Shown: positions 16,293 to 57,827 of the stretch, piece by piece | Layout of the letters: each line of letters starts with the position of its first letter | Position numbering within the stretch: the stretch's first letter is position 1 | NCBI GenBank assembly: GCA_964547465.1 | Contig: CAZJNI010000004.1 | Span: 19,927 to 83,926 of the forward strand | From: an uncultured Gammaproteobacteria bacterium | Lineage (GTDB): Bacteria; Patescibacteriota; Microgenomatia; Daviesbacterales; UBA10151 | DNA length: 64,000 bases | Direction of reading: 5' to 3' | Notes under the pieces: model-generated | What the model was told of the DNA's origin: nothing | The model's input: the letters and a program-made list of their open reading frames with translations, nothing else | Database searches by the model: none | Translations under genes and position numbers: made by a program

Positions 16293-16366
16293 GTCATTGC
16301 GAGCCCGAAGGGCGTGGCAATCTTATTAATAAGATCCTCACGTCGCTTCGCTCCTCAGGATGACAA
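16293..16366. repeat. Palindromic MITE-like element copy A (GTCATTGCGAG...CTCAGGATGAC)
   Basis: Shares termini and central GTGGCAATCTTATT/AATAAGAT core with 6 other copies. Confidence 0.8.
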
Positions 16367-17378: not shown

Positions 17379-17460
17379 GTCATTGCGAAGCCACGAAGTG
17401 GCTGTGGCAATCTTATTTCAATAAGATTCCCACGACTTACTTCGTAAGTCTCGGGATGAC
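17379..17460. repeat. Palindromic MITE-like element copy B
   Basis: GTCATTGCGAAGCCACGAAGTGGCTGTGGCAATCTTATT...AATAAGATTCCCACGACTTACTTCGTAAGTCTCGGGATGAC. Confidence 0.8.
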
Positions 17461-17746
17461 TAGTTAATATTTTTGTATAGATCCTTGAGGCTTGGATTAA
17501 ATTTACTAATTAATTTTTCTTTTGCTGCTCTATTCCAACTTTTAATCTGTTTTTCTCGCTCAATCGCAGTTTCTGGGTCATAATAAACTTCATAAAATAG
17601 AAGTTCATGAACCTGATATTTTTGGGTGAATCCTTTTACCAGATTATTTTTATGTTGCCAAACTCTTCTTAATAAGTTATTTGTGATTCCTGTGTATAAC
17701 ACTGTTCTAGTGAAGTTACTTAGGATATAGACATAATATTGTTTCA
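17460..17746 (-). CDS. GIY-YIG nuclease family protein (small, UPF0213-like)
   Basis: YYVYILSN...LYTGITNNLLRRVWQH GIY-YIG motif; ORF track extends to 17852 through a MITE copy, true start likely MKQYYVY. Confidence 0.6.
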
Positions 17747-17764
17747 TAAGATTATTATAGATAG

Positions 17765-17840
17765 GATCGCCACGCTTCGCTCGCGATGACGAGATAATAA
17801 GATTCCCACGGTCCGCCTTTGGCGGACCTCGGAATGACAA
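17765..17840. repeat. MITE-like element copy C (rearranged/right-half-rich)
   Basis: CTCGCGATGAC then AATAAGATTCCCACGGTCCGCCTTTGGCGGACCTCGGAATGAC. Confidence 0.7.
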
Positions 17841-17872
17841 TGGTGGGTGCATGCCGGCTATGCATCCTTAGC

Positions 17873-18112
17873 TCATTCAGCCAGATATCCTTTTATTTCT
17901 TCAACTCTTTGCTGAAAGTTTAAAATATCTTCAGGCCAAAGTAGAAATGAATTTCTCCTTCTTTCTCCGTTTTCTCCAACAAAAGCTGATTCTGTTATTT
18001 TTAGATATCTTTTATTATTGGAAGCAACGTAGCAATCAAAGAAGAAAGTTCTTTTACCGCACTTTAACGTAGAAGATTGAACTGGTTTCCTGATCTCTTT
18101 CTGTTTGTCCAT
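17873..18112 (-). CDS. PUR-alpha-like nucleic-acid-binding protein (DUF3276-like)
   Basis: KRTFFFD...NNKRYLKITE resembles PUR repeat/DUF3276 signature; 79 aa. Confidence 0.4.
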   Translation of the reverse strand: MDKQKEIRKPVQSSTLKCGKRTFFFDCYVASNNKRYLKITESAFVGENGERRRNSFLLWPEDILNFQQRVEEIKGYLAE

Positions 18113-19210: not shown

Positions 19211-20006
19211 AAAAAATTCAAATACTACGTCATTGCGAGCCCGCGAAGCGAGGCGTGGCAATCTCATTAAAAAGATTGCTTTGTCGTCAAAGACTCCTCG
19301 CAATGACAGGAGGATTTCTACCCGAGTCAGTTTATCTGTACCAGTGTGTTCATTAGCAGGTAGAGCTGCTGGAAATTTATCACTCCCTAAAGAATTTTTT
19401 GGAGCAGAGGTTAACAAAAAACTTTTAGCTCAAGCGCTAAGAGTTTATACAACTAATCAAAAAAGTTTAACCGGTAATACTAAAACCCGAGGTGAGGTTG
19501 AAGGGTCAACTGCCAAAATTTACAGACAAAAAGGGACAGGTCGGGCCAGGCATGGTGCAATCAGGGCTCCAATATTTGTTGGAGGAGGAATTACTTTTGG
19601 TCCTAAGGAGAGGAAAGTAAGATTAGATCTCCCCCAAAAAATGAAAAAATCTGCGCTAAAGTCTGCGCTGTCCTCTAAAGTAATAGATAAATCTGTAATG
19701 GGATTGTCTGGAATCGAGAAAGCATCAGGTAAGACAAAAGAAATAGCGAAATTAATGTATCAAGTATCAAGTATCAGGTATCAAGGGAAAGATAAAAAAT
19801 CTAAGAAGATTACCAGTACATTAATTGTAACAGGAGATAAGGTAGATAATATACTTCGTGGAGCTAGAAATATTCCAGGGGTTGATATTTTAACAGTTAA
19901 TTTAATTAATGCTTATGAGGTAGCAAGACATGATTTGCTACTTATTACCAAAGAAGCTGTAGATGTTTTAAGCGGAAAGGGTAAAGCGGAAAGGGTAAAG
20001 TTATGA
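19197..20006 (+). CDS. rplD: 50S ribosomal protein L4 (true start possibly in-frame GTG ~19344 downstream of MITE copy)
   Basis: QKGTGRARHGAIRAPIFVGGGITFGP L4 core; first ~50 codons of ORF are encoded by the MITE copy. Confidence 0.85.
   Translation: MPRVKKNSNTTSLRAREARRGNLIKKIALSSKTPRNDRRISTRVSLSVPVCSLAGRAAGNLSLPKEFFGAEVNKKLLAQALRVYTTNQKSLTGNTKTRGEVEGSTAKIYRQKGTGRARHGAIRAPIFVGGGITFGPKERKVRLDLPQKMKKSALKSALSSKVIDKSVMGLSGIEKASGKTKEIAKLMYQVSSIRYQGKDKKSKKITSTLIVTGDKVDNILRGARNIPGVDILTVNLINAYEVARHDLLLITKEAVDVLSGKGKAERVKL
19229..19307. repeat. MITE-like element copy D (inside annotated 5' end of rplD ORF)
   Basis: GTCATTGCGAGCCCGCGAAGCGAGGCGTGGCAATCTCATT...CTCCTCGCAATGAC. Confidence 0.8.
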
Positions 20007-20434
20007 TAATTTTGAAAAGACCAATAATTTCTGAAAAATCTATGAGACTTGCCAAGAGTGGTTTATATACTTTTGAAGTAGATAAAAAAGCCACCAAAGA
20101 CTTAATCTCTAAAGTTGTTGCCCAAACTTTCAATGTTAAAGTTTTAGGGGTTAAAGTAGCTAATGTTAAAGGGAAAATTAAGATGCAAAAGTCGGTAAGA
20201 AAATATTTTAAAACATCCACCATAAAAAAAGCTTTTGTACAAGTTAAAAAAGGTGAGAAAATTGCCATTTTTGAAACACCAAAAGATGAGGAAGCAGTGG
20301 TGACTACAGCTGAAGGTGAACCTCAAATTATGAGGGAGAAAAAAGATTTATTGGGTAGAACAAAGGTGAGAATTGAAAAGCGCGCAGTAGGTGCTGCACC
20401 AACAACCCAGAGGAAAGTGATAACAGGCAAGTAG
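20003..20434 (+). CDS. rplW: 50S ribosomal protein L23 with ~40 aa C-terminal extension
   Basis: L23 homology in first ~95 aa. Confidence 0.85.
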   Translation: MIILKRPIISEKSMRLAKSGLYTFEVDKKATKDLISKVVAQTFNVKVLGVKVANVKGKIKMQKSVRKYFKTSTIKKAFVQVKKGEKIAIFETPKDEEAVVTTAEGEPQIMREKKDLLGRTKVRIEKRAVGAAPTTQRKVITGK

Positions 20435-20452
20435 ATTTATGATTTAGGATTT

Positions 20453-21214
20453 ATGAATATGAAAAAAATAGAAACAAAGAAAAACTTAAAAAAAATATTA
20501 AAAAAACATTCAGGTAGATCATCTGGTGGTATGGTTACTGTCCGGGGTCAGGGCGGCAGACACAAAAGATACTTTAGACAAATAGATTTTAAAAGAGAAA
20601 AATTTGGAGTTGAGGGTTTGGTTGCCGGCATTGAATATGACCCGAATAGAAATGTTGATATTGCTTTAGTTAAATATTCAGATGGTGAATATAGATATAT
20701 TCTTTCCCCAAAAGATCTAAAAGTGGGAGATAAGATTAAATCTGATCAAAAGGTTGAAGCCAAAGTAGGCAATGCTATGAAACTTAAAAATATCACAGTC
20801 GGCGCATTTTTACACAATGTTGAGTTAATGCCTGGTAGAGGTGGACAAATGGGTAGATCTGCGGGTACTGTGATACAACTTTTAGCCAAAGAAGCAGGAT
20901 TTGCGCATTTGAAATTGCCATCTGGTGAAATTAGAATGGTTCCCCTGGAATCAATGGCCACGATCGGCATGTTGGGAAATGAGGAAATGAGAGCCAGAGT
21001 AATAGGCAAAGCCGGAAGATCCCGCCATATGGGGATCAAGCCAACTGTTCGGGGTATTGCCCAGGATCCTGATTCACATCCACACGGTGGGGGCGAGGGA
21101 AGATCTGGAATAGGACGAAAGCGGCCAATGACCAAATATGGTCGTCCTGCTGTTGGTAAAACCAGGAATAAAAAGAAATGGACAAATAAGTATATTATAA
21201 AGAGGATAAATTAA
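20453..21214 (+). CDS. rplB: 50S ribosomal protein L2
   Basis: GRNxxG...HPHGGGEGR motifs. Confidence 0.9.
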
Positions 21215-21215
21215 T

Positions 21216-21521
21216 ATGAGCAGATCAACTAAAAAAGGACCATATATTGACGAAAAGTTACTTAAGAAAGTAATGGCTCAAAAAGGAGCTGCCGGTAAAG
21301 GGGGCGCCTCCGGCACTAAAGACCCTATAAAGACTTGGGCCAGAAGATCACAAATTTCACCTGAATTTGTGGGCCACAGCTTTTTAGTTCACCAGGGGAA
21401 AAATTTTGTGACGGTTTTTGTATCAGAATCTATGGTGGGACATAGGTTAGGTGAGTTTGCACCAACCAGAATATTTAGAACACATGGAACAGTTACCAAA
21501 AGAACATTGGAGAAAACATAG
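21216..21521 (+). CDS. rpsS: 30S ribosomal protein S19
   Basis: KKGPYID...[13 protein letters not shown]. Confidence 0.9.
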
Positions 21522-21914
21522 ATGGAAGTTGTAACAATACAAAAATATATGCATACTACCCCCAGAAAGTTAAGACTTGTGGCAGATATGGTTCGTAAGA
21601 TGGCACCCACTCAAGCTTTAGATATTTTAAGGATTACCCCGAAGATGGCAGCTAAAGATTTAAGCAAGGCTTTGGAAACTGTATTGGCAAATGCAAAACA
21701 ACTTGGACTGGATACACAAAATATTTCTCTTAAGTCAATTGAAATAAACGAGAGTACAAAAATGAAAAGATATAGAGCTGGCACAAGAGGCAGGGCAAAG
21801 CCTTTTAAAAGAAGAATGGCACATATTAAAATCGTCGTTACCGACGATTTAAATGTCAAAAGTCAAATGTCAAAAGTCAAAACTGAAAAAGTAGAAGAAA
21901 TGGAGAAGAAATAG
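21522..21914 (+). CDS. rplV: 50S ribosomal protein L22 with repeat-encoded C-terminal tail
   Basis: L22 homology; last 22 aa encoded by 7-nt tandem repeat. Confidence 0.9.
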   Translation: MEVVTIQKYMHTTPRKLRLVADMVRKMAPTQALDILRITPKMAAKDLSKALETVLANAKQLGLDTQNISLKSIEINESTKMKRYRAGTRGRAKPFKRRMAHIKIVVTDDLNVKSQMSKVKTEKVEEMEKK

Positions 21915-22966: not shown

Positions 22967-23314
22967 ATGAAAAAACAAGAATTTGTACAAATTAAAGGAT
23001 TAGATATTAAAGAGTTAAAAGCCAAGGTAGTAGCGCTAAAGGATGAAATTGCCAAACTGACAATGGAAAAAAATAGAAAGATATTAAAAGATCTAAAAAG
23101 TATCTTTAAGAAAAGAAAAGATTTAGCTCAAGTTCTAACTGTTTTAAAACAGAAAGAATTATTGGGACAGTTAGAGTCAAGAGTCAAGAATCAAGAGTCA
23201 AGTGAAGAAGTAAAAAGTCAAAATAATACACCCTCCACTAAAGTGGGGCCAAAAGTTAAAGGTATAAGTAAAAAGGAAAAAGTAAAAAAAGGAAAGGAGA
23301 AATCTAGTCCCTAG
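22967..23314 (+). CDS. rpmC: 50S ribosomal protein L29 with 46 aa C-terminal extension identical to the S17 tail
   Basis: L29 core first ~65 aa; extension encoded by 163 bp direct repeat. Confidence 0.8.
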   Translation: MKKQEFVQIKGLDIKELKAKVVALKDEIAKLTMEKNRKILKDLKSIFKKRKDLAQVLTVLKQKELLGQLESRVKNQESSEEVKSQNNTPSTKVGPKVKGISKKEKVKKGKEKSSP

Positions 23315-23335
23315 ACTCTAGTAACTAGTCACTAA
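23173..23335. repeat. 163 bp perfect direct repeat, copy 1 (3' end of rpmC + junction)
   Basis: Identical to 23648-23810. Confidence 0.9.
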
Positions 23336-23338
23336 CTT

Positions 23339-23779
23339 ATGATAGGTCGTGTTACATCAACAAAAATGCAAAAAACAGCGGTTGTTTTAATAGAAAGAAT
23401 AGCAATGCATCCTTTGTATAAAAAAACTTATAAAAGATCTAAAAAGTATTTAGTGGATGATCCAATAGGAGTTAAAGACGGGGATTTGGTGGAGATTATA
23501 AAAGTTAGCCCTATATCTAGAAATAAACATTGGAGGATTATTAAAGTTGTAGGTAAGAATCTGGCCGAGATTGCGGAAGAGAAGCTAAAGGCTCAAGCTG
23601 AAAAGGTGATTTCAGAAGTAATGCCGGAAGAGAAAGTAGAGTCAAGAGTCAAGAATCAAGAGTCAAGTGAAGAAGTAAAAAGTCAAAATAATACACCCTC
23701 CACTAAAGTGGGGCCAAAAGTTAAAGGTATAAGTAAAAAGGAAAAAGTAAAAAAAGGAAAGGAGAAATCTAGTCCCTAG
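23339..23779 (+). CDS. rpsQ: 30S ribosomal protein S17 with long C-terminal extension
   Basis: S17 core (TKMQKTAVV...HWRIIKVV) then extension whose last 46 aa equal the L29 tail. Confidence 0.85.
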   Translation: MIGRVTSTKMQKTAVVLIERIAMHPLYKKTYKRSKKYLVDDPIGVKDGDLVEIIKVSPISRNKHWRIIKVVGKNLAEIAEEKLKAQAEKVISEVMPEEKVESRVKNQESSEEVKSQNNTPSTKVGPKVKGISKKEKVKKGKEKSSP

Positions 23780-23810
23780 ACTCTAGTAACTAGTCACTAA
23801 TTATATGGTT
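23648..23810. repeat. 163 bp perfect direct repeat, copy 2 (3' end of rpsQ + junction)
   Basis: Identical to 23173-23335. Confidence 0.9.
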
Positions 23811-24173: not shown

Positions 24174-24508
24174 TGAAAAAATTAAAAATTAAAAATTTAA
24201 AATTAAAAATTAAGAAAGGAGATAAGGTCAAAATTTTGCTTGGTAAAGATAGAGGTAAGGAAGGATCAGTCGCTTATGTTTTAGGGAAAAGTAGAAAGGT
24301 ATTTGTTGAAGGAGCAAATCTTTACAAAAGACATGTCAAAAAAATGCAAGAGGTTAAAGGAAGAATTATTGATATACCAAAACCAATGAGTATCTCTAAT
24401 GTTGCTCTGATATGTCCTAATTGCAAAAAGATCACAAGGATAGGATACAAAAAGCTAGGAAATGATAAGGTAAGAATCTGTAAAAAGTGTAAGAAGGAGA
24501 TTAAATGA
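24167..24508 (+). CDS. rplX: 50S ribosomal protein L24 with C-terminal CxxC...CxxC zinc-ribbon extension
   Basis: KOW motif [16 protein letters not shown]; tail CPNCKK...CKKCKK; N-terminus encoded by (AAAAATT)x5 repeat. Confidence 0.85.
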
Positions 24509-24597: not shown

Positions 24598-25164
24598 ATG
24601 ACTATGGATAGACTTAAGGAAAAATATTTAAAAGAAATAAGAGCTAAACTGCAACAGGAGCTGGGTATTAAAAATGCACTGGCTGTTCCACAGGTGGAAA
24701 AAGTGGTTATCAGTATTGGTTTAGGTGAGGCAAAAGAGAATAAGGATGTATTAGAAAAAGCTAAGGTTTATTTAACAGCTTTGGCTGGACAAACACCGGT
24801 TGTGACTCTGGCCAAAAAATCAATTGCATCTTTTAAGGTATCAGTCGGTCAACCAATTGGGATGATGGTTACATTAAGAGGGACAAGAATGTATGCCTTT
24901 TTGGATAAATTGATAAATATAGTTTTACCAAAGGTAAGAGATTTTAAAGGAATTTCTCAAAGCTCTTTTGATAGCATGGGAAATTTAAATATTGGTTTGC
25001 GGGAACAGACTGTTTTCCCGGAAGTTGATTATAAAACAGTTGATAAAGTTAGAGGGTTAGCAGTTACTATTACAACAACAAGCAAAAATCAAGAGCAAGG
25101 CAAAAAGCTTTTAGAGCTTTTAGGAATGCCTTTTAGAAAGGACAGTCAAGTCGCTAGAGTCTAG
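24598..25164 (+). CDS. rplE: 50S ribosomal protein L5
   Basis: L5 homology, 188 aa. Confidence 0.9.
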   Translation: MTMDRLKEKYLKEIRAKLQQELGIKNALAVPQVEKVVISIGLGEAKENKDVLEKAKVYLTALAGQTPVVTLAKKSIASFKVSVGQPIGMMVTLRGTRMYAFLDKLINIVLPKVRDFKGISQSSFDSMGNLNIGLREQTVFPEVDYKTVDKVRGLAVTITTTSKNQEQGKKLLELLGMPFRKDSQVARV

Positions 25165-25183
25165 GTTCTAGTCACTATAATTT

Positions 25184-25363
25184 ATGGCAAAGGTGAGCAA
25201 TATTGTTAAAAAGAAATTTAAATACGAAGTACAAAAACACAGCCGGTGTTCACGTTGTGGTAGAGCTCGTTCGTATCTTCGAAAATTTGGACTTTGCAGA
25301 TTATGCTTTAGAGAACTTGCTCATTTAGGGCAATTGCCCGGAGTAAAGAAAGCGAGTTGGTAA
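25184..25363 (+). CDS. rpsZ: 30S ribosomal protein S14 type Z (zinc-binding), 59 aa; absent from ORF track
   Basis: [59 protein letters not shown] with CxxC...CxxC, in canonical rplE-rpsH position. Confidence 0.85.
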
Positions 25364-29441: not shown

Positions 29442-30180
29442 GCTGGAGTTGATGAGAAAGTCTGGCAAGATTGCCTCATCTGCTCTGAAAAAAGCCACAG
29501 AGGCAATCAAGACGGGTGTAACTGAATTGGAAGTGGATAAAGTAGCGCAGGATGAGATTTATAAATTGGGTGGAAATTTGTCTTATAAGACTGTACCTGG
29601 GTACAACTATGCTACCTGTATAACCGTTAATGAACAGGTGGTGCATGGAATACCAACAGAGCGAAAGTTTAAGAGTGGAGATTTGGTAAGTATAGATTTG
29701 GCAGTTGAGTATAAGGGTTGGCATACAGATTGTGCATGGTCAGTGTTAGTGGGTCATGAGTCAAGTGTCAAGGGTCATGAAGAGAAAAAAAAATTTTTAA
29801 GCGTTGGAGAGCAGGCTCTTTGGGAAGGAATTGATAAAGCAATTGAAGGAAATAGCATTGGAGATATTTCAAATACTATTCAAAGTAGAGTTGAGGGTGC
29901 AGGCTACAGCGTAGTCAGGAGTTTGGTAGGTCACGGGGTTGGGAAAAGCCTGCATGAAGAACCGGAAATACCAGGGTTTGGAAAAGCGGGAGTTGGGGTA
30001 AGGTTAAAAGAAGGTATGACTTTGGCACTGGAGGTAATTTACACAAGCGGAAATCCGGAAGTGGTTTTAGAAGAAGATGGATGGACATTTTCCACATCAG
30101 ATGGTTCCTGGGGGGGTTTATTTGAAATGACAATAATTGTAGGAAAAAAGGAAGCTAAAGTATTAACCCGCCTTCGTTGA
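29419..30180 (+). CDS. map: Methionine aminopeptidase type I
   Basis: MAP pita-bread fold metal ligands (D..D..H..E..E pattern), ORF opens at 29389; start likely internal Met overlapping adk end. Confidence 0.85.
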   Translation: MKSRNRYELELMRKSGKIASSALKKATEAIKTGVTELEVDKVAQDEIYKLGGNLSYKTVPGYNYATCITVNEQVVHGIPTERKFKSGDLVSIDLAVEYKGWHTDCAWSVLVGHESSVKGHEEKKKFLSVGEQALWEGIDKAIEGNSIGDISNTIQSRVEGAGYSVVRSLVGHGVGKSLHEEPEIPGFGKAGVGVRLKEGMTLALEVIYTSGNPEVVLEEDGWTFSTSDGSWGGLFEMTIIVGKKEAKVLTRLR

Positions 30181-30504: not shown

Positions 30505-30621
30505 ATGAAAGTAGCAGCCAGTATTAAAAAAAGATGTAAAGCGTGTAAAATAGTCAAGAGAAGTGGCATTTTGTATGTCATTTGCCCTCGTGATCCAAGA
30601 CACAAACAGAGGCAAGGATAA
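30505..30621 (+). CDS. rpmJ: 50S ribosomal protein L36 (38 aa); absent from ORF track
   Basis: [38 protein letters not shown]; C..C...C..H zinc ribbon. Confidence 0.85.
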
Positions 30622-30627
30622 TTATGA

Positions 30628-30658
30628 ATTTACAATTTACAATTTACAATTTACAATT
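30628..30658. repeat. (ATTTACA)x4 tandem heptamer in rpmJ-rpsM intergenic region
   Basis: Direct inspection. Confidence 0.8.
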
Positions 30659-33006: not shown

Positions 33007-33526
33007 AGTCTATGGTAAAAAACTTGGAAGAAATAAAAATGAACGAACTGCACTATTTAAAAGTTTAGTACAGTCACTTTTTACATACGGAACCATTGAA
33101 ACTTCTGAACAAAAAGCCAAAGCAGTTAAGGGTTTAGTTGATAAGGTTATAAACCTTGCTAAAAGTAAAAACACACAAAGATTACTCCAGAGCTATCTCA
33201 TTAATAAAAATTTACAGGAGAGATTAATTAAAGAAATTGCCCCAAAATTAGATGATCGAATTTCAGGATATACCACAATGCTTCGATTAGGTGAAAGAGC
33301 GGGAGATAGATCAACTAGAGTGAAAATTAGTCTTATTCACAGTGAAGAGTTAAAGCCATTAGAAAAGGGTACAGGTAGTAGGGTACAGGGTATAGTTAAA
33401 AAAACAAACGAAAAAGGAAAAGTGATTTCGGATAAAAAGGACGAGGAAAAAGGTAGAACTGGACAATCTGTTAGAAAAACTTCAACAATAAGGAAAGGGA
33501 TTTCAAGATTGTCCAAAACAAAATGA
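32996..33526 (+). CDS. rplQ: 50S ribosomal protein L17 with ~55 aa C-terminal extension
   Basis: L17 core; extension contains (GGGTACA)-type heptamer repeat. Confidence 0.85.
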   Translation: MRHRVYGKKLGRNKNERTALFKSLVQSLFTYGTIETSEQKAKAVKGLVDKVINLAKSKNTQRLLQSYLINKNLQERLIKEIAPKLDDRISGYTTMLRLGERAGDRSTRVKISLIHSEELKPLEKGTGSRVQGIVKKTNEKGKVISDKKDEEKGRTGQSVRKTSTIRKGISRLSKTK

Positions 33527-42286: not shown

Positions 42287-42357
42287 CGGGGAGTAGTATA
42301 GTGGTAACACGCCGCGCTGGGGGTGCGGCATCGGGAGTCCGATTCTCCCCTCCCCGA
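42287..42357 (+). tRNA. tRNA-Pro (anticodon GGG), atypical T-loop TCCGATT
   Basis: Hand-folded cloverleaf: acceptor CGGGGAG/CTCCCCG, D-arm AGTGGTA loop, anticodon stem CCGCG/TGCGG loop CTGGGGG, T-stem GGGAG/CTCCC, discriminator A. Confidence 0.55.
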
Positions 42358-43511: not shown

Positions 43512-44002
43512 TGGATTCCCTGGCATTTAAATTACTTCTGAATAAACTCTACAGACTTATCTCTATCAGAGCTAGATCGGAAAAAGAAATCAGAGATTAT
43601 TTAAGGGTAAAGGGTAAAGGGTTAAGGGGAAAGAAAATAGAGATAAATGATAAGATGATTGAGTATCTAATAGATACCCTAAAGCAGCAAAATCTTATTA
43701 ATGATTTAGGGTTTGCTAAAGCTTGGGTGGAATCAAGGAGCAGGAAAAAAGGGATGAGAGTTATCCGGCAGGAGTTATTTCAAAAAGGAATTGACAGGGA
43801 AATTGTGTCAAGTATCATGGGTCAAGTGTCAAGTATAGAAGAACAGAAAACAGCAGAAAAATTGCTTGAAAAAAAATTAAGAGTTTGGAAAAATTTACCC
43901 AATTTAGAATTTAAGAAAAAGGCATATGATTTCTTACTAAGAAGAGGATTTGAATATGGAATAGTGAAAGATGCCATTGAAAATATTATAAAAAAGATGT
44001 AA
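43511..44002 (+). CDS. recX: Regulatory protein RecX
   Basis: Helical repeat protein directly downstream of recA, RecX-like 163 aa. Confidence 0.65.
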   Translation: MDSLAFKLLLNKLYRLISIRARSEKEIRDYLRVKGKGLRGKKIEINDKMIEYLIDTLKQQNLINDLGFAKAWVESRSRKKGMRVIRQELFQKGIDREIVSSIMGQVSSIEEQKTAEKLLEKKLRVWKNLPNLEFKKKAYDFLLRRGFEYGIVKDAIENIIKKM

Positions 44003-44115: not shown

Positions 44116-44200
44116 GTCATTCCGAGCGAATGAAGTTCGCGTGGGAATCTTGATTAATAGGGATTGCCACGTCGCTCGAGGACTCGCTCCTTGCAATGAC
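44116..44200. repeat. MITE-like element copy F (immediately upstream of rny)
   Basis: GTCATTCCGAGCGAATGAAGTTCGCGTGGGAATCTTGATT...CTCGCTCCTTGCAATGAC. Confidence 0.8.
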
Positions 44201-52263: not shown

Positions 52264-53456
52264 TTTGAGTAAAATACCATATTAATGAAATATAAATTGA
52301 TTAAAAATCCAGCTATAGCCAAAGTTAAGAATTTATAAGAAACATTTTTTTTGAATGAATAAAGTAATGCTATAAATAGCATTGGATAAAAATCGATGGC
52401 ATAGCGGTACCCGTATTGCCAGCCGCCATTGGTAAAACTTCCAAAGATAGCAAACATCATAAGTAAAGTTGTAATTCCAGCAAATTTAACCCTTTTATCT
52501 TTCCAGTTACTAAATAAAATCCAGATAAAAATTGAAGAGGTAAATAAGATGCTTAGTCCTGAACCGTCAACTCTTAAATATGGAAATTGCATTATATGTG
52601 TTCCTGGAATAAAAATAGGTTCAGGCATTTTCAAGAACATAGTATAAAGATTTGCCGGAATATGAATTAAACTCCACACACCCAACGTCCTATTGGCAAC
52701 AACTGGTCCACTATTCCATTCCTGCATAGAATAACCAGTTTCTAAAAAATTCCCAAATCGAGCAGAATTATAAATTCCTATTAAGATAAGAGATATAATT
52801 ATAGGTAAAAGTAATAAAGTGAGGTTTTTAAATTTTATTTTTTTAGATAAATCGCAGTAGGATAAGTTTAGTATAAAAAATATTACTGTAAAGATTAAGG
52901 AGATCCTTGTGATGAAAGCTAGCGCTAGATAGATACCGATAATTAGCCATGATCTATTAAAAAAATAAGCCTCTAGACTTAAAAGAGTTAGGGTAAAACC
53001 AACAATTTGTGCAAAGTACCAGGACCATGGTATTAAAGCAATCCCTAAGTATGCAGTAGAAAATAAAATTGCAAAACTTATTATAATAGATTTAGTTAAA
53101 TTACCACTTATTTTTTTAGCAATTCTGATAAGCAATAATACATTCAGTAGGTTTAAAAAAAATAACAAATATCCCTGTCTTATATGATCACCAAATATAT
53201 AAACAAACGGCATGAGTAAAATTGCAGGAAAAGGACCCAATGGCCAGTATTGACGATTTTTGTATAAGGCAGCATCAAAAGTATTTGAGAGAAAATAAAG
53301 CTTGCCTTGAAGGAAAGAAGAAGCGAGGCTTACAAATTGTTCTTGTTGGGGTGAAGTAAAAAGGTCGTAATAAACAAATAATAGAACCCCCAAAATACAG
53401 AAGAATAATATTATAATTCTCTTCATGAATAAAGTATTAGTTATTTTAGGTCCCAC
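52260..53456 (-). CDS. Polytopic membrane protein, GT-C-like glycosyltransferase (paralog)
   Basis: SLASSFLQGKLYF...QYWPLGPFPAILLMPFVYIFG parallels upstream paralog; 5' end overlaps miaA 5' end divergently. Confidence 0.4.
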   Translation of the reverse strand: MGPKITNTLFMKRIIILFFCILGVLLFVYYDLFTSPQQEQFVSLASSFLQGKLYFLSNTFDAALYKNRQYWPLGPFPAILLMPFVYIFGDHIRQGYLLFFLNLLNVLLLIRIAKKISGNLTKSIIISFAILFSTAYLGIALIPWSWYFAQIVGFTLTLLSLEAYFFNRSWLIIGIYLALAFITRISLIFTVIFFILNLSYCDLSKKIKFKNLTLLLLPIIISLILIGIYNSARFGNFLETGYSMQEWNSGPVVANRTLGVWSLIHIPANLYTMFLKMPEPIFIPGTHIMQFPYLRVDGSGLSILFTSSIFIWILFSNWKDKRVKFAGITTLLMMFAIFGSFTNGGWQYGYRYAIDFYPMLFIALLYSFKKNVSYKFLTLAIAGFLINLYFINMVFYSK

Positions 53457-54432
53457 TTCAACAGGGAAAACAGACTTGGCATTAACTTTGGCTAAAAAAT
53501 TTAATGGGGAGTTAGTATCGTGTGATTCCAGACAAGTATATGTGGGACTTGATATAGGGACCGGGAAGATGCCTGGAGTAGATTTAAGATTTAAGAATAA
53601 GGATTTAAGAATAAAAAAGGGAAATAATTGGTGGGAAATAGGTGGAATAAAAATCTGGATGTATGATGTAATATCCCCAAAAAGGCAGTATACAGTTTTT
53701 GATTATGTAAAAGATGCAAATAAGGCAATAGATAAGATTATAAAAAAAGGAAAGCAACCTATTATAGTTGGGGGAACTGGTTTGTATCTGAAGGGGTTGC
53801 TATATGGTTTTCCTAATTTAGGAATTCCGGTAGATAAAAAGTTAAGAAATAACTTAGAAGAGTTAACTTTAGAAGAACTTCAAAAAAACCTTCAAGGATT
53901 TTCTATTCAAAGATGGGAAAAGATGAATAGTTCAGATAGGCAAAATCCCAGAAGATTAGTTAGGGCGATAGAGCTAACTATTTCGTCATTGCGAGGAGCA
54001 AGGCGACGAAGCAATCCATTAAACATATTGCCACGGCCCTTCGGGCCTCGCAATGACATATTAAAAATTGGATTAACTACCTCAAGGGAGATTTTATACA
54101 AAAGAATTGATGAAAGAGTAGTATCTAGAATAAATGAAGGAATGATTGATGAGGCAATAAGACTATATAAAGATGGATTAAGTCTGAAAAGAATGAGACA
54201 GTTAGGGCTTGAGTATGGAGTAATGGCGGATTTTCTGGAAATCAAAATAAGCAGAGATCAATTAATTGAAACTCTGAAGGTAAAAATTCATCACTTTGCC
54301 AAACGTCAAGAAACATGGTTTAAAAAAGAAAAAGATATTAATTGGTTTGATATAGCTAAAAAAAATTATATAAATAAAGTGGAAAATTTGGTGGCTAAAT
54401 GGTATTATCAGGCAAATGCCACGCAAGATTGA
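53425..54432 (+). CDS. miaA: tRNA dimethylallyltransferase with in-frame MITE-derived insertion
   Basis: P-loop GPTSTGKTDLAL, DSRQVY motif; 335 aa. Confidence 0.85.
   Translation: MNKVLVILGPTSTGKTDLALTLAKKFNGELVSCDSRQVYVGLDIGTGKMPGVDLRFKNKDLRIKKGNNWWEIGGIKIWMYDVISPKRQYTVFDYVKDANKAIDKIIKKGKQPIIVGGTGLYLKGLLYGFPNLGIPVDKKLRNNLEELTLEELQKNLQGFSIQRWEKMNSSDRQNPRRLVRAIELTISSLRGARRRSNPLNILPRPFGPRNDILKIGLTTSREILYKRIDERVVSRINEGMIDEAIRLYKDGLSLKRMRQLGLEYGVMADFLEIKISRDQLIETLKVKIHHFAKRQETWFKKEKDINWFDIAKKNYINKVENLVAKWYYQANATQD
53985..54057. repeat. MITE-like element copy G located in-frame inside miaA
   Basis: GTCATTGCGAGGAGCAAGGCGACGAAGCAATCCATT...GCCACGGCCCTTCGGGCCTCGCAATGAC. Confidence 0.8.
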
Positions 54433-55384: not shown

Positions 55385-55391
55385 ATTTTTT

Positions 55392-55715
55392 GCCTAGGAA
55401 GAGGGTAAGCCAGATTCTGTTTCAAGATGATCATTTATCTAGACTGTGATTTTTAATGTCACATCTTCCGCCAGTCGGCGGATGCTCCTTATTTAAACTA
55501 TTAAGCGAGCAGCTTAGTTTTTTCTAGGATTGCAGCGGGGAGGATTGCCACGTTTCACCCGAGCTTGACCCCGGTTCGTCACTGTTGCTCTATACTCTGT
55601 CTTACGACCGTCCGACTTACGCCGGACACCCTGCTCTATGCTGTCTGGACTTTCCTCCCGTTCAAATTTCTTTTAGAAATTTGCGCGGGCGATCATCCTT
55701 CTTCCTAGGCCGATA
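55392..55715 (-). ncRNA. rnpB: RNase P RNA (bacterial type A-like, compact)
   Basis: Minus strand contains GGAGGAAAGTCCAGAC...CATAGAGCAGGGTG (CR-I/P4), GGGTGAAACGTGG (CR-II-like), AACAGAATCTGGCTTA (CR-V/P4 3' strand); P1 GGCCTAGGAAGAAGG/CCTCTTCCTAGGC; upstream TTGAAT-17-TAAAAT promoter at 55722-55751 on minus strand. Confidence 0.75.
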
Positions 55716-57524: not shown

Positions 57525-57827
57525 TCAAAAAAAATTTAGATTCACAATATGATTATTTATTAAAAAATATAGAATAATTTGTGCTCCAATTGCAGCTCCT
57601 GAAAAAGTTAATATCTTTAAAAGATCTTGATGAAGATAGATTACATCGGTAGCTGGCTCGCTTCGCGAAGTGGGTAGCTGGCTCGCTTCGCGAAGTGGGT
57701 AGTCGGTAGTATGGGTAGCTACAGACTGCTTGCTACTAGCTACTGATTCCCGACCATAAAATTGCTGACGGAGAATTTTCAGGCGTTTTTCTAAATCTGA
57801 CTGTTTTTTAGTTTGTTGAATAGCCAT
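57525..57827 (-). CDS. Small single-pass membrane protein containing frame-shifting 25-nt tandem repeat
   Basis: C-terminal TM ILTFSGAAIGAQIILYFLI; repeat 57649-57698. Confidence 0.3.
   Translation of the reverse strand: MAIQQTKKQSDLEKRLKILRQQFYGRESVASSKQSVATHTTDYPLREASQLPTSRSEPATDVIYLHQDLLKILTFSGAAIGAQIILYFLINNHIVNLNFF
57649..57698. repeat. 25-nt direct tandem repeat x2 (GGTAGCTGGCTCGCTTCGCGAAGTG) containing palindrome CTTCGCGAAG
   Basis: Direct inspection. Confidence 0.85.

Follow-up and report, generated by a model that had tools for sequence, protein, structure and literature searches.

The sequence analyzed here, hereafter the window, is a 64,000-nt stretch of contig CAZJNI010000004.1 (GenBank assembly GCA_964547465.1, positions 19,927 to 83,926 of the forward strand) from a member of the Daviesbacterales, and the elements in question are short tandem arrays of 7-nt units lying within and between its genes. 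The window has a GC content of 29-41%, and its + strand carries rpoB-rpoC, fusA, tuf, and the S10-spc-alpha ribosomal operon; the L30 gene is absent between S5 and L15, as expected for the Candidate Phyla Radiation (CPR). Pfam confirmed the host genes as those of YceG/MltG, L4, L22, L29, S17, L24, Map, L17, and RecX, and the only Rfam matches in the window were an RNase P RNA class A (55390-55708, -) and one tRNA (42287-42357, +). Using Tandem Repeats Finder (TRF), the following arrays and array-bearing segments were located.

1193-1225, + strand: AAGTTCA x4.7, encoding residues 122-133 of YceG/MltG (LSSKFKIQSSKF), supported by TRF, the scan, and Pfam; strong.
19757-19785, + strand: GTATCAA x4.1, internal loop of L4, residues 187-197; strong.
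19970-20000, + strand: 14-nt super-unit AAGCGGA AAGGGTA (AAGCGGAAAGGGTA) x2.2 at 100%, C-terminal tail of L4; strong.
20434-20456, + strand: GATTTAT x3.3, from the L23 stop to the L2 start; same unit at the same junction in the related locus L101.
21851-21889, + strand: AAATGTC/AAAAGTC, with a perfect 14-nt period, where the C-terminal tail of L22 begins; strong.
23172-23335, + strand: 164-nt segment, copy 1, comprising the L29 C-terminal tail, stop, and spacer.
23173-23202, + strand: AGAGTCA x4.3, L29 C-terminal tail; strong.
23258-23288 and 23723-23753, + strand: AAAGGAA/AAAGTAA, in both copies of the 164-nt segment.
23304-23334 and 23769-23799, + strand: CTAGnnn x4 cassette with stops in all frames, in both copies of the 164-nt segment.
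23637-23800, + strand: 164-nt segment, copy 2, comprising the S17 C-terminal tail, stop, and spacer before L14.
23638-23667, + strand: S17-tail array, the second copy, within the 164-nt segment.
24177-24213, + strand: AAAAATT x5.3, encoding the N-terminal extension of L24; strong.
25154-25183, + strand: diverged third CTAG cassette, CTAGAGT CTAGGTT CTAGTCA CTA..., holding the L5 stop, with the S14 start at 25184.
29751-29777, + strand: degenerate GGGTCAA-type array, superperiod 21 nt, at an indel hotspot in a loop of Map; weak alone.
30627-30658, + strand: AATTTAC x4.6 at 100%, intergenic, in the rpmJ-rpsM spacer; strong.
33366-33392, + strand: AGGGTAC x3.9, with an indel, C-terminal extension of L17; weak.
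43603-43633, + strand: AAGGGTA x4.4, with a GGG-N4 x4 motif, in RecX between the helix-turn-helix (HTH) domains HTH1 and HTH2; clear.
43805-43834, + strand: GTGTCAA x4.3, 73% matches, HTH2-HTH3 linker of RecX; weak.
53580-53614, + strand: AGATTTA x4.4, with a 14-mer x1.9 at 100%, near the N-terminus of the open reading frame (ORF) 53425-54432.

The array at 19970-20000 stops 6 nt short of the L4 stop codon and the L23 start, and the array at 30627-30658 is truly intergenic, with rpmJ spanning 30505-30621 and rpsM following. The three weak arrays (29751-29777, 33366-33392, and 43805-43834) had TRF scores of 31-39 and 72-80% matches. The original prediction, made from the letters alone, had listed twelve such arrays. 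A period-7 array is present at all twelve positions, and only one entry, given as 23648-23675, was displaced, lying about 10 nt from the true array at 23638-23667. The list missed the arrays at 20434-20456, 23258-23288/23723-23753, 23304-23334/23769-23799, and 53580-53614, and it entered the L29 and S17 arrays separately, although they are two copies of one segment.

At period 7, with minimum values of 3 copies and a score of 30, TRF returned 19 rows in the window, compared with an average of 0.33 rows, and never more than 2, in 100 dinucleotide-preserving shuffles of the window, an excess of ~60-fold. Counts for the other periods from 4 to 15 were at expectation. This shuffle comparison, which had been proposed as a check, bears out the description of the arrays as pervasive. 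Of 15 arrays in the window, 11 fall in the ribosomal-protein operon of 15 kb (p=7e-5).

The comparative set consisted of 80 loci of this operon, ~40 from Microgenomates and ~40 from non-CPR controls, the Microgenomates loci coming from many projects and from SPAdes, MEGAHIT, and other pipelines. Three-digit handles such as L001 denote loci used for comparison; one- or two-digit designations denote ribosomal proteins. Long exact runs were found at period 7 only and in Microgenomates only (770 kb of Microgenomates loci). The excess recurred in most of the ~40 Microgenomates loci, which were assembled independently. Most Daviesbacteria loci were positive, with up to 5.5 arrays per 10 kb, as were several other Microgenomates loci, with up to 7.2 arrays per 10 kb, and arrays were absent from the non-CPR controls, some with 37-42% GC, except for 3 loci with 1-2 arrays. 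Inside ORFs lay 43 of 69 arrays, 16 crossed ORF ends, and the rest were intergenic (n=10). The length mode was 30-33 nt in coding and intergenic arrays alike. Units were diverse, with dozens of distinct canonical units among 67 arrays, and GGG occurred in 7% of units, the exceptions being the window array at 43603-43633 and the Map arrays of L001, L004, and L008.

The closest relative of the window was L101, an independent Logan assembly, with 80% L4 identity; S3 of the window was at most 85% identical to that of metagenome-assembled genomes of Daviesbacteria and other Microgenomates. Exact-protein look-ups with L29, L14, InfA, and the source L4 gave zero matches, and thus no second assembly of the window's own genome, and a metagenome scan with S8 returned distant relatives only (at most 56% identity).

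Each protein was aligned with 23 Daviesbacteria orthologues, and the array-encoded residues were marked. It was observed that the arrays coincide with length-variable segments, namely the C-terminal tails of three proteins of varying overall length (L22, 112-163 aa; L29, 72-115 aa; S17, 105-153 aa), the N-terminus, internal loop, and C-terminus of L4, the N-terminus of L24, and the Map loop, while the RecX arrays were placed between HTH domains. S3, L14, L2, S4, and InfA have a fixed length and are array-free. These orthologue alignments agree with the claim that many arrays fall in lineage-specific extensions or insertions and answer the proposed mapping check, the arrays coinciding with indel-variable segments. 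At the start of the L22 tail, different loci carry different units: AAATGTC in the window and L007, AGTCGTC in L008, and AAGAAAC/AACAAGT in L020 and L101. The AlphaFold2 model of L4 was poor (mean predicted local distance difference test score 64, predicted template modeling score 0.46) and at most weakly supportive.

The ORFs remain open through the arrays. Because 7 is not a multiple of three, the arrays encode non-repetitive peptides, which in the window are composed of 25% Lys and 15% Ser, in agreement with the predicted low complexity. Selection for heptads or coiled coils at the protein level was rejected, since the identity is found at 7 nt and not at 21 nt.

At three sites, the amplified unit resembles pre-existing local sequence. 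In most relatives, the stop of rpmJ and the start of rpsM are 2 nt apart (caaggaTAAttATG); in the window, TAATTATG is kept and followed by (AATTTAC)x4.6, after which come a Shine-Dalgarno sequence and an ATG, both of them new. At the same point L001 carries (AAATATC)x4, and L010 has the short form. In the Map loop, array-free orthologues read GGY AAA GAY, and L004 and L008 carry (AGGGGAA)x4, exactly +21 nt. At the L24 start, the orthologues hold the ancestral TAATGAAAATTAAAAAGGG and the window holds (AAAAATT)x5.3. Five arrays show an ABAB alternation, perfect at period 14 and not at 7, compared with 0.13 expected from point mutation. This pattern indicates in-register duplication of existing units and speaks against a single insertion or accumulated 7-bp target-site duplications.

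Stop-containing units were found in 14 of 42 arrays inside ORFs and in 14 of 16 at ORF ends (Fisher p=3e-4), with a composition-matched expectation of 0.62. In the L24 array, the sole variant base, T24198, turns an in-frame TAA into TTA. On the coding strand, A makes up 48% of the coding arrays; on the + strand, the intergenic arrays contain more T (43%) than A (31%). The high A content is thus a matter of coding and not of the mechanism. The TCAA core occurred in 18 of 36 stop-free units, for an expectation of 3.1 that rises to 7.2 under stop avoidance. The shared TCAA/GTCA core of the original prediction is thus in part a by-product of A-richness and stop avoidance, beyond which a ~2.5-fold TCAA bias remains. 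In tails of L22, L29, S17, and L23 from which the arrays had been masked, the lag-7 match was 0.339, compared with 0.310 at other lags that are not multiples of 3 (z ~5.6), and the conserved cores showed no residual lag-7 signal. This excess identifies the tails as, in part, decayed arrays.

A change of copy number was found in L4. One member of a 90% L4 cluster was frameshifted directly after the array peptide MYQVSSI; the other length differences within such clusters were mostly alternative start calls. The DNA of L105 (GCA_001776905.1), L106, and L103 was compared with that of L107 (ERZ4903072), all as assemblies. Between L105 and L107, 15,772 aligned positions contained 4 substitutions and one indel. 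The indel corresponds precisely to one GTATCAA unit, in the orthologue of the L4 array at window 19757-19785. Loss of the unit in the L107 assembly splits L4 into ORFs of 217 and 45 aa (L107 5157-5965 vs L105 5253-5927). Repeat collapse in L107 is unlikely, because the assembler k of 141 exceeds the 25-nt array. The proposed check for copy-number variation thus returned one unit change. In the window and L101, the orthologous L4 array has the same copy number and differs by substitutions only. The arrays are mutable in unit steps and not hypervariable, and they have the properties of heptanucleotide long simple sequence repeats (LSSRs), being longer than chance, specific to period 7, and variable by whole units. 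Three of the four L105/L107 substitutions lie exactly 6 nt apart within S3 (L105 8052, 8058, 8064), and may reflect either a multi-nucleotide event or conversion of a short tract.

Some arrays lie at operon junctions. The two 164-nt copies are 100% identical and form a direct repeat at the ends of the adjacent genes L29 and S17, which points to a recent duplication or gene conversion between gene ends. The 3' end of the segment reads CTAGTCC CTAGACT CTAGTAA CTAGTCA CTA and puts a TAG into each reading frame. The order of the variant units is preserved at three window junctions, the third being L5-S14 at 25154; the S14 that follows (25184-25363, +) is of the short Zn-ribbon type, with 59 aa. 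The CTAG cassette was also found in L006 (9966 and 11280), L011 (11380), and L032 (1944 and 9435), at L29-S17, L22-S3, or other junctions, with a consensus across junctions of CTAGTYC-CTAGACT-CTAGYRA-CTAGTCA whose conserved columns are the CTAG palindromes. A sister family, CTGAnAG CTGAnAG CTGAAGA CTGAYRn, is present in L001 (3163), L008 (8377 and 10062), and L020 (11687), and the control loci contain neither family. All 12 CTAG/CTGA cassettes follow an AAAGGAG motif and end 5-12 nt ahead of the next ATG; cassette-free junctions have overlapping stop and start codons. The cassettes are conserved between non-sister genomes whose proteins are ~80% identical. The RNA structure of the 164-nt segment and CTAG cassette was not significant (z=-0.57) and showed no covariation, and Rfam gave no match at any array. 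In some cases, the spacer that follows a stop codon is the reverse complement of the array in the upstream tail (L22-S3 in L001; S17-L14 in L005, L012, and L018).

We consider it probable that the arrays are heptanucleotide microsatellites, gained and lost by slippage-type steps of 7 nt and then filtered by selection. The process would be replication or repair slippage, and part of this best explanation is that a slippage-type process is unusually active in the Microgenomates of the CPR. Slippage in situ would duplicate or delete DNA in register in 7-nt steps, sometimes of 14, and a local heptamer would be amplified to ~4-5 copies. Within genes, the survivors would be those that restore the frame by a net +21 nt (1+3 copies), are stop-free in all three frames read, encode tolerable Lys/Ser-rich peptides, and lie in permissive places, namely termini, surface loops, and inter-domain linkers. 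Stop-bearing arrays would survive only at gene ends, where they would terminate translation whatever the frame and set apart, by a spacer, genes that once overlapped. Arrays that survive would then decay by point substitution, giving the hypervariable low-complexity tails of ribosomal proteins. Selection at the peptide level would account for the A-richness and for the concentration in ribosomal-protein genes. The original prediction had likewise suggested a common generating mechanism and put slipped-strand expansion first, and both the one-unit polymorphism between near-identical assemblies and the ABAB arrays speak for it.

Several observations weigh against this account. Generic slippage predicts no exact 7-nt step, and periods 5, 6, 8, and 9 show no excess. 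Since the intergenic arrays (n=10) peak at 30-33 nt too, the 4-5 copies cannot be put down to the frame filter alone. An internal coding array has to gain 21 nt, and as +7 and +14 are not viable, this implies multi-unit events or transiently tolerated frameshifts. In L001, L004, and L008, the Map gene holds a perfect (AGGGGAA)x4 array that is 100% identical between diverged flanks, and the three do not form a clade in a star-like neighbor-joining tree; the shared array needs parallel birth, homogenization, or constraint. Only one unit polymorphism was seen, in a relative rather than in the window's own genome, and the arrays of two other populations (~7 arrays in 7 assemblies and ~11 arrays in 8) were unchanged. 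Non-coding arrays had been predicted to be purer than coding ones, and this was not borne out (p=0.15). For 21 of 69 arrays, a partner array of reverse-complement sequence lay no more than 120 nt away, mostly in Microgenomates other than Daviesbacteria and for none in the window, an arrangement that simple slippage would not generate; these partnered arrays (~30%) give hairpins with heptamer-periodic stems (L033, L035, L036, L037, L021 8685, and L116 10014-10095, the last an AATCGTT/AACGATA pair). Finally, judged by their sequences, the junction cassettes look copied or conserved as units, which would call for gene conversion, mobility, or selection as a second process besides array birth. The 7-nt step, the 30-33-nt length of intergenic arrays, the +21 requirement, the shared Map array, and the inverted partners keep both template-switch and functional or constraint models under consideration.

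Iterative template-switch or fold-back repair, in which a broken or stalled 3' end repeatedly anneals at microhomology, copies a few bases, and comes off again, laying down several tandem copies per event and sometimes, by copying the opposite strand, an inverted partner, is an unlikely alternative that nevertheless addresses some of these points. It would provide the one-step, multi-unit birth needed in coding arrays, where +7 or +14 would be lethal, and it would account for the similar ~30-nt length of coding and intergenic arrays as well as for the inverted partners, including the L116 pair. Yet in the sole polymorphism an existing array has cleanly lost or gained one unit, and this, like in-register ABAB duplication, is a classic slippage signature. 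Moreover, no window array has an inverted partner, and template switching gives no reason for the 7-nt step either.

Quite unlikely as a general origin is the spread of dispersed cassettes by gene conversion, ectopic recombination, or a mobile element, including accumulated 7-bp target-site duplications. The identical 164-nt segments in the tails of L29 and S17, the fixed unit order of the CTAG cassette at several junctions and genomes, its CTGA sister family, and the recurrence of similar units (AAGGGTA-like, AAAACTY-like) in unrelated genes are what such spread would leave behind, and the genome contains a recently mobile nested-hairpin element, with a copy inside L4. However, 67 arrays with dozens of different units are hard to derive from cassettes, the units match local ancestral sequence, related genomes hold different units at one site, and common flanks were not seen. 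The ABAB arrays and the unit deletion in L107 speak against target-site duplications; the mini-insertion footprints among the options of the original prediction are disfavored. Cassette spread probably holds only for the junction cassettes and the 164-nt segment, as a secondary process.

We think it very unlikely that the arrays are kept as functional nucleic-acid elements, whether as translational couplers or spacers, as G-quadruplexes, or as binding sites of a heptamer-reading protein, with period and copy number set by selection for such a function. The junction cassettes are strongly conserved, lie directly upstream of the next ATG, and have stops in three frames, as would suit such a role, and the TAACTGA repeats of Beggiatoaceae, for which a translational role was proposed, are placed alike (PMC4679880). 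The (AGGGGAA)x4 and (TAAAGGG)x4 arrays are G-quadruplex motifs, and a four-unit preference was linked to G-quadruplexes in Xanthomonas and Nostoc (PMC4692102); the identical perfect Map array of non-sister genomes and the clustering of window arrays in the ribosomal-protein operon also fit a function. Against it, the units are far too diverse for one binding protein, few contain GGG, RNA structure, CTAG hairpin covariation, and Rfam matches at the arrays are lacking, and most arrays are decaying. The one-unit loss that breaks L4 looks like a mutational liability and not a design. Chance low complexity in an AT-rich genome or an assembly artefact has a negligible probability: the low GC, the three individually weak arrays, and the single assembly of the source genome would allow for it, but it is ruled out by the excess over shuffles, the array-free controls of similar GC, the open ORFs, and the origin of the loci from many projects and several assemblers, together with the orthologous L4 array of L101 that shows point differences.

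A bolder reading, which we regard as doubtful, puts in the place of ordinary slippage a dedicated, sequence-independent process of the Microgenomates that would turn any local heptamer into ~4 copies in one event, with an enzyme or some oddity of the reduced replication and repair apparatus setting the step. It would be a main engine of de novo protein sequence in the CPR, it would yield conserved, possibly mobile stop cassettes, and the same mechanism would operate in Geobacter, Xanthomonas, Nostoc, and Beggiatoaceae. If true, about half of CPR ribosomal proteins owe their lineage-specific tails and insertions to this dedicated process, and stop-in-all-frames cassettes rebuild translational coupling at operon junctions.

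Heptanucleotide repeats are known from other prokaryotes. As quoted in later papers, they are the most abundant long simple sequence repeats in many prokaryotes, and slippage involving polymerase contacts was proposed speculatively (Mrazek 2007, via PMC4679880 and PMC4692102). The arrays described here resemble this LSSR class, as far as those quotations go, in the prevalence of 7-nt units over others of 5-11 nt, the scattered phylogeny, the proposed slippage, and the unexplained number 7. The LSSR survey (Mrazek, Guo and Shah 2007 PNAS) predates CPR genomes, and in the parts of it that are quoted, coding units are multiples of three; in contrast, 59 of 69 arrays here lie inside or at the edges of genes and occur in essential ribosomal-protein genes. 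An excess of heptanucleotide repeats in prokaryotes is therefore known; the CPR host, the unit diversity, the essential coding location, and the all-frame-stop junction cassettes are new. In agreement with the claim that the mechanism is undescribed for ribosomal-protein genes, we found no report of heptamer arrays in CPR or ribosomal-protein genes in a literature search of incomplete coverage.

Geobacter metallireducens contains 49 copies of four GGACCGG heptamers, within and between genes, and a five-heptamer MTYCTGA set that includes CTGA (PMC2700814). The ~4 heptamers and the intragenic positions are shared with the arrays here; the Geobacter units, however, are one or two fixed sequences read as regulatory, whereas those here are dozens of unrelated units that mostly match local sequence. 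The GGGNATC / GGGGAYT repeats of Xanthomonas and Nostoc likewise have a 7-nt period and four units, a preference attributed to G-quadruplexes (PMC4692102), and are often within 50 nt of ORF ends, some over stop codons. They form a single G-rich family that is under-represented in coding regions. The arrays here share the preference for about four units and lack the G-tract of at least 3 per unit that defines the G-quadruplex class; with GGG in only 7% of units, quadruplex formation cannot explain the four-unit preference. In cyanobacteria, the short tandemly repeated repetitive (STRR) heptamers of Calothrix and Nostoc are, as cited in PMC4692102, few fixed sequences in long and mostly intergenic arrays. 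Neither the fixed units nor the intergenic location applies here (dozens of units in 67 arrays; 43 of 69 arrays in ORFs and 16 across ends), and membership of this class was rejected.

NeuO of the E. coli K1 prophage CUS-3 contains a coding (AAGACTC)n array that slips in one-unit steps and gives the full-length protein only if n is divisible by 3 (PMC13001214). It resembles the present arrays in being a heptamer array in coding sequence with all three frames translated, and even in its unit (AAGACTC vs AAGAGTC and AAAACTC here). NeuO, however, has 3-53 hypervariable copies that switch a non-essential surface-modifying enzyme (PMC13001214), whereas the arrays here have 3-5 copies in essential genes, are stable over long divergence, and would presumably have deleterious off-frame alleles. 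A phase-variable contingency locus was rejected: there are 3-5 units, the window and L101 have the same copy number at 80% L4 identity, 15 further assembly comparisons showed no variation, and one off-frame allele was seen. Nor are the hosts (L4, L22, L24, L29, S17, L17, Map, RecX, and YceG) dispensable, environment-facing genes.

The TAACTGA direct repeats of Beggiatoaceae, cyanobacteria, and Bacteroidetes closely precede start codons (PMC4679880). Like the cassettes here, they have 2-6 heptamers by start codons and stops in every frame, and the CTGA-cassette unit TAGCTGA is one mismatch away. The present cassettes differ in their units, CTAGnnn and nAGCTGA, in a fixed variant order, and in their position at junctions of the ribosomal-protein operon. 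Only the junction cassettes show the TAACTGA-type placement. Identity with the TAACTGA repeats was rejected, as only scattered doublets at no more than 1 mismatch were found and true doublets were rare. In Borgs, tandem repeats create intrinsically disordered protein regions, with in-ORF units always divisible by three (PMC9879509). Those are amino-acid repeats, while here a 7-nt unit encodes non-repetitive peptides and sets of three units keep the frame; with a unit not divisible by three, the arrays do not belong to the Borg amino-acid tandem repeats.

Regions specific to CPR ribosomal proteins have been documented without mention of repeats and without an explanation (PMC9297842), and the birth, filtering, and decay of arrays would give them a concrete, testable origin. 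The arrays also constitute a natural experiment in which non-triplet microsatellites create coding sequence in essential genes, three units adding seven non-repeated residues. With so many unrelated units, the step of 7 nt and the preference for four copies can be told apart from the effects of any one sequence, G-quadruplex, or binding site. This was not possible in the systems with a single unit family (Geobacter, Xanthomonas, Nostoc, Beggiatoaceae), so the question of the heptamer preference is narrowed. In practice, the arrays are frameshift hotspots able to break essential genes in assemblies or annotations, as with L4 in L107.

The window also contains a family of nested hairpins of ~80 nt, with outer arms GTCATTGCGAG/CTCGCAATGAC and inner arms GTGGCAATCTT/AAGATTGCCAC. 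Sites were found at 19229-19307 (L4), 44116-44200, 53985-54057 (ORF 53425-54432), 17780-17838, 16293-16303, and 17379-17389, and arm matches numbered 10 in the window, compared with 0.34 expected. No physical association of the hairpins with the heptamer arrays was seen in the window; both kinds of element occur in one genome, as tandem heptamers and small dispersed hairpin elements do in STRR-bearing cyanobacteria. Elhai et al. in 2008 reportedly associated STRR heptamers with small hairpin elements. One hairpin copy is inserted in frame at the N-terminus of L4, adding 25 aa relative to L101. In the near-identical strains P0005 and P0121 (93% identical), the hairpin-encoded L4 peptide is present in one and absent from the other, indicating that the element was recently mobile, even inside an essential gene.

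S19 of the window (21216-21521) has a 6-residue insertion, GAAGKG, relative to L101, which is not a heptamer array; the protein has 101 aa, compared with 93-95 aa in all other Daviesbacteria. The S10 operon is interrupted between rpsJ and rplC by two small ORFs on the - strand (17460-18112), whose equivalents in L105 (3320-4032) match GIY-YIG and DUF3276. A perfect 25-nt tandem repeat, GGTAGCTGGCTCGCTTCGCGAAGTG x2.2, lies at 57648-57702 inside the - strand ORF 57525-57827 and is followed by a related degenerate copy.

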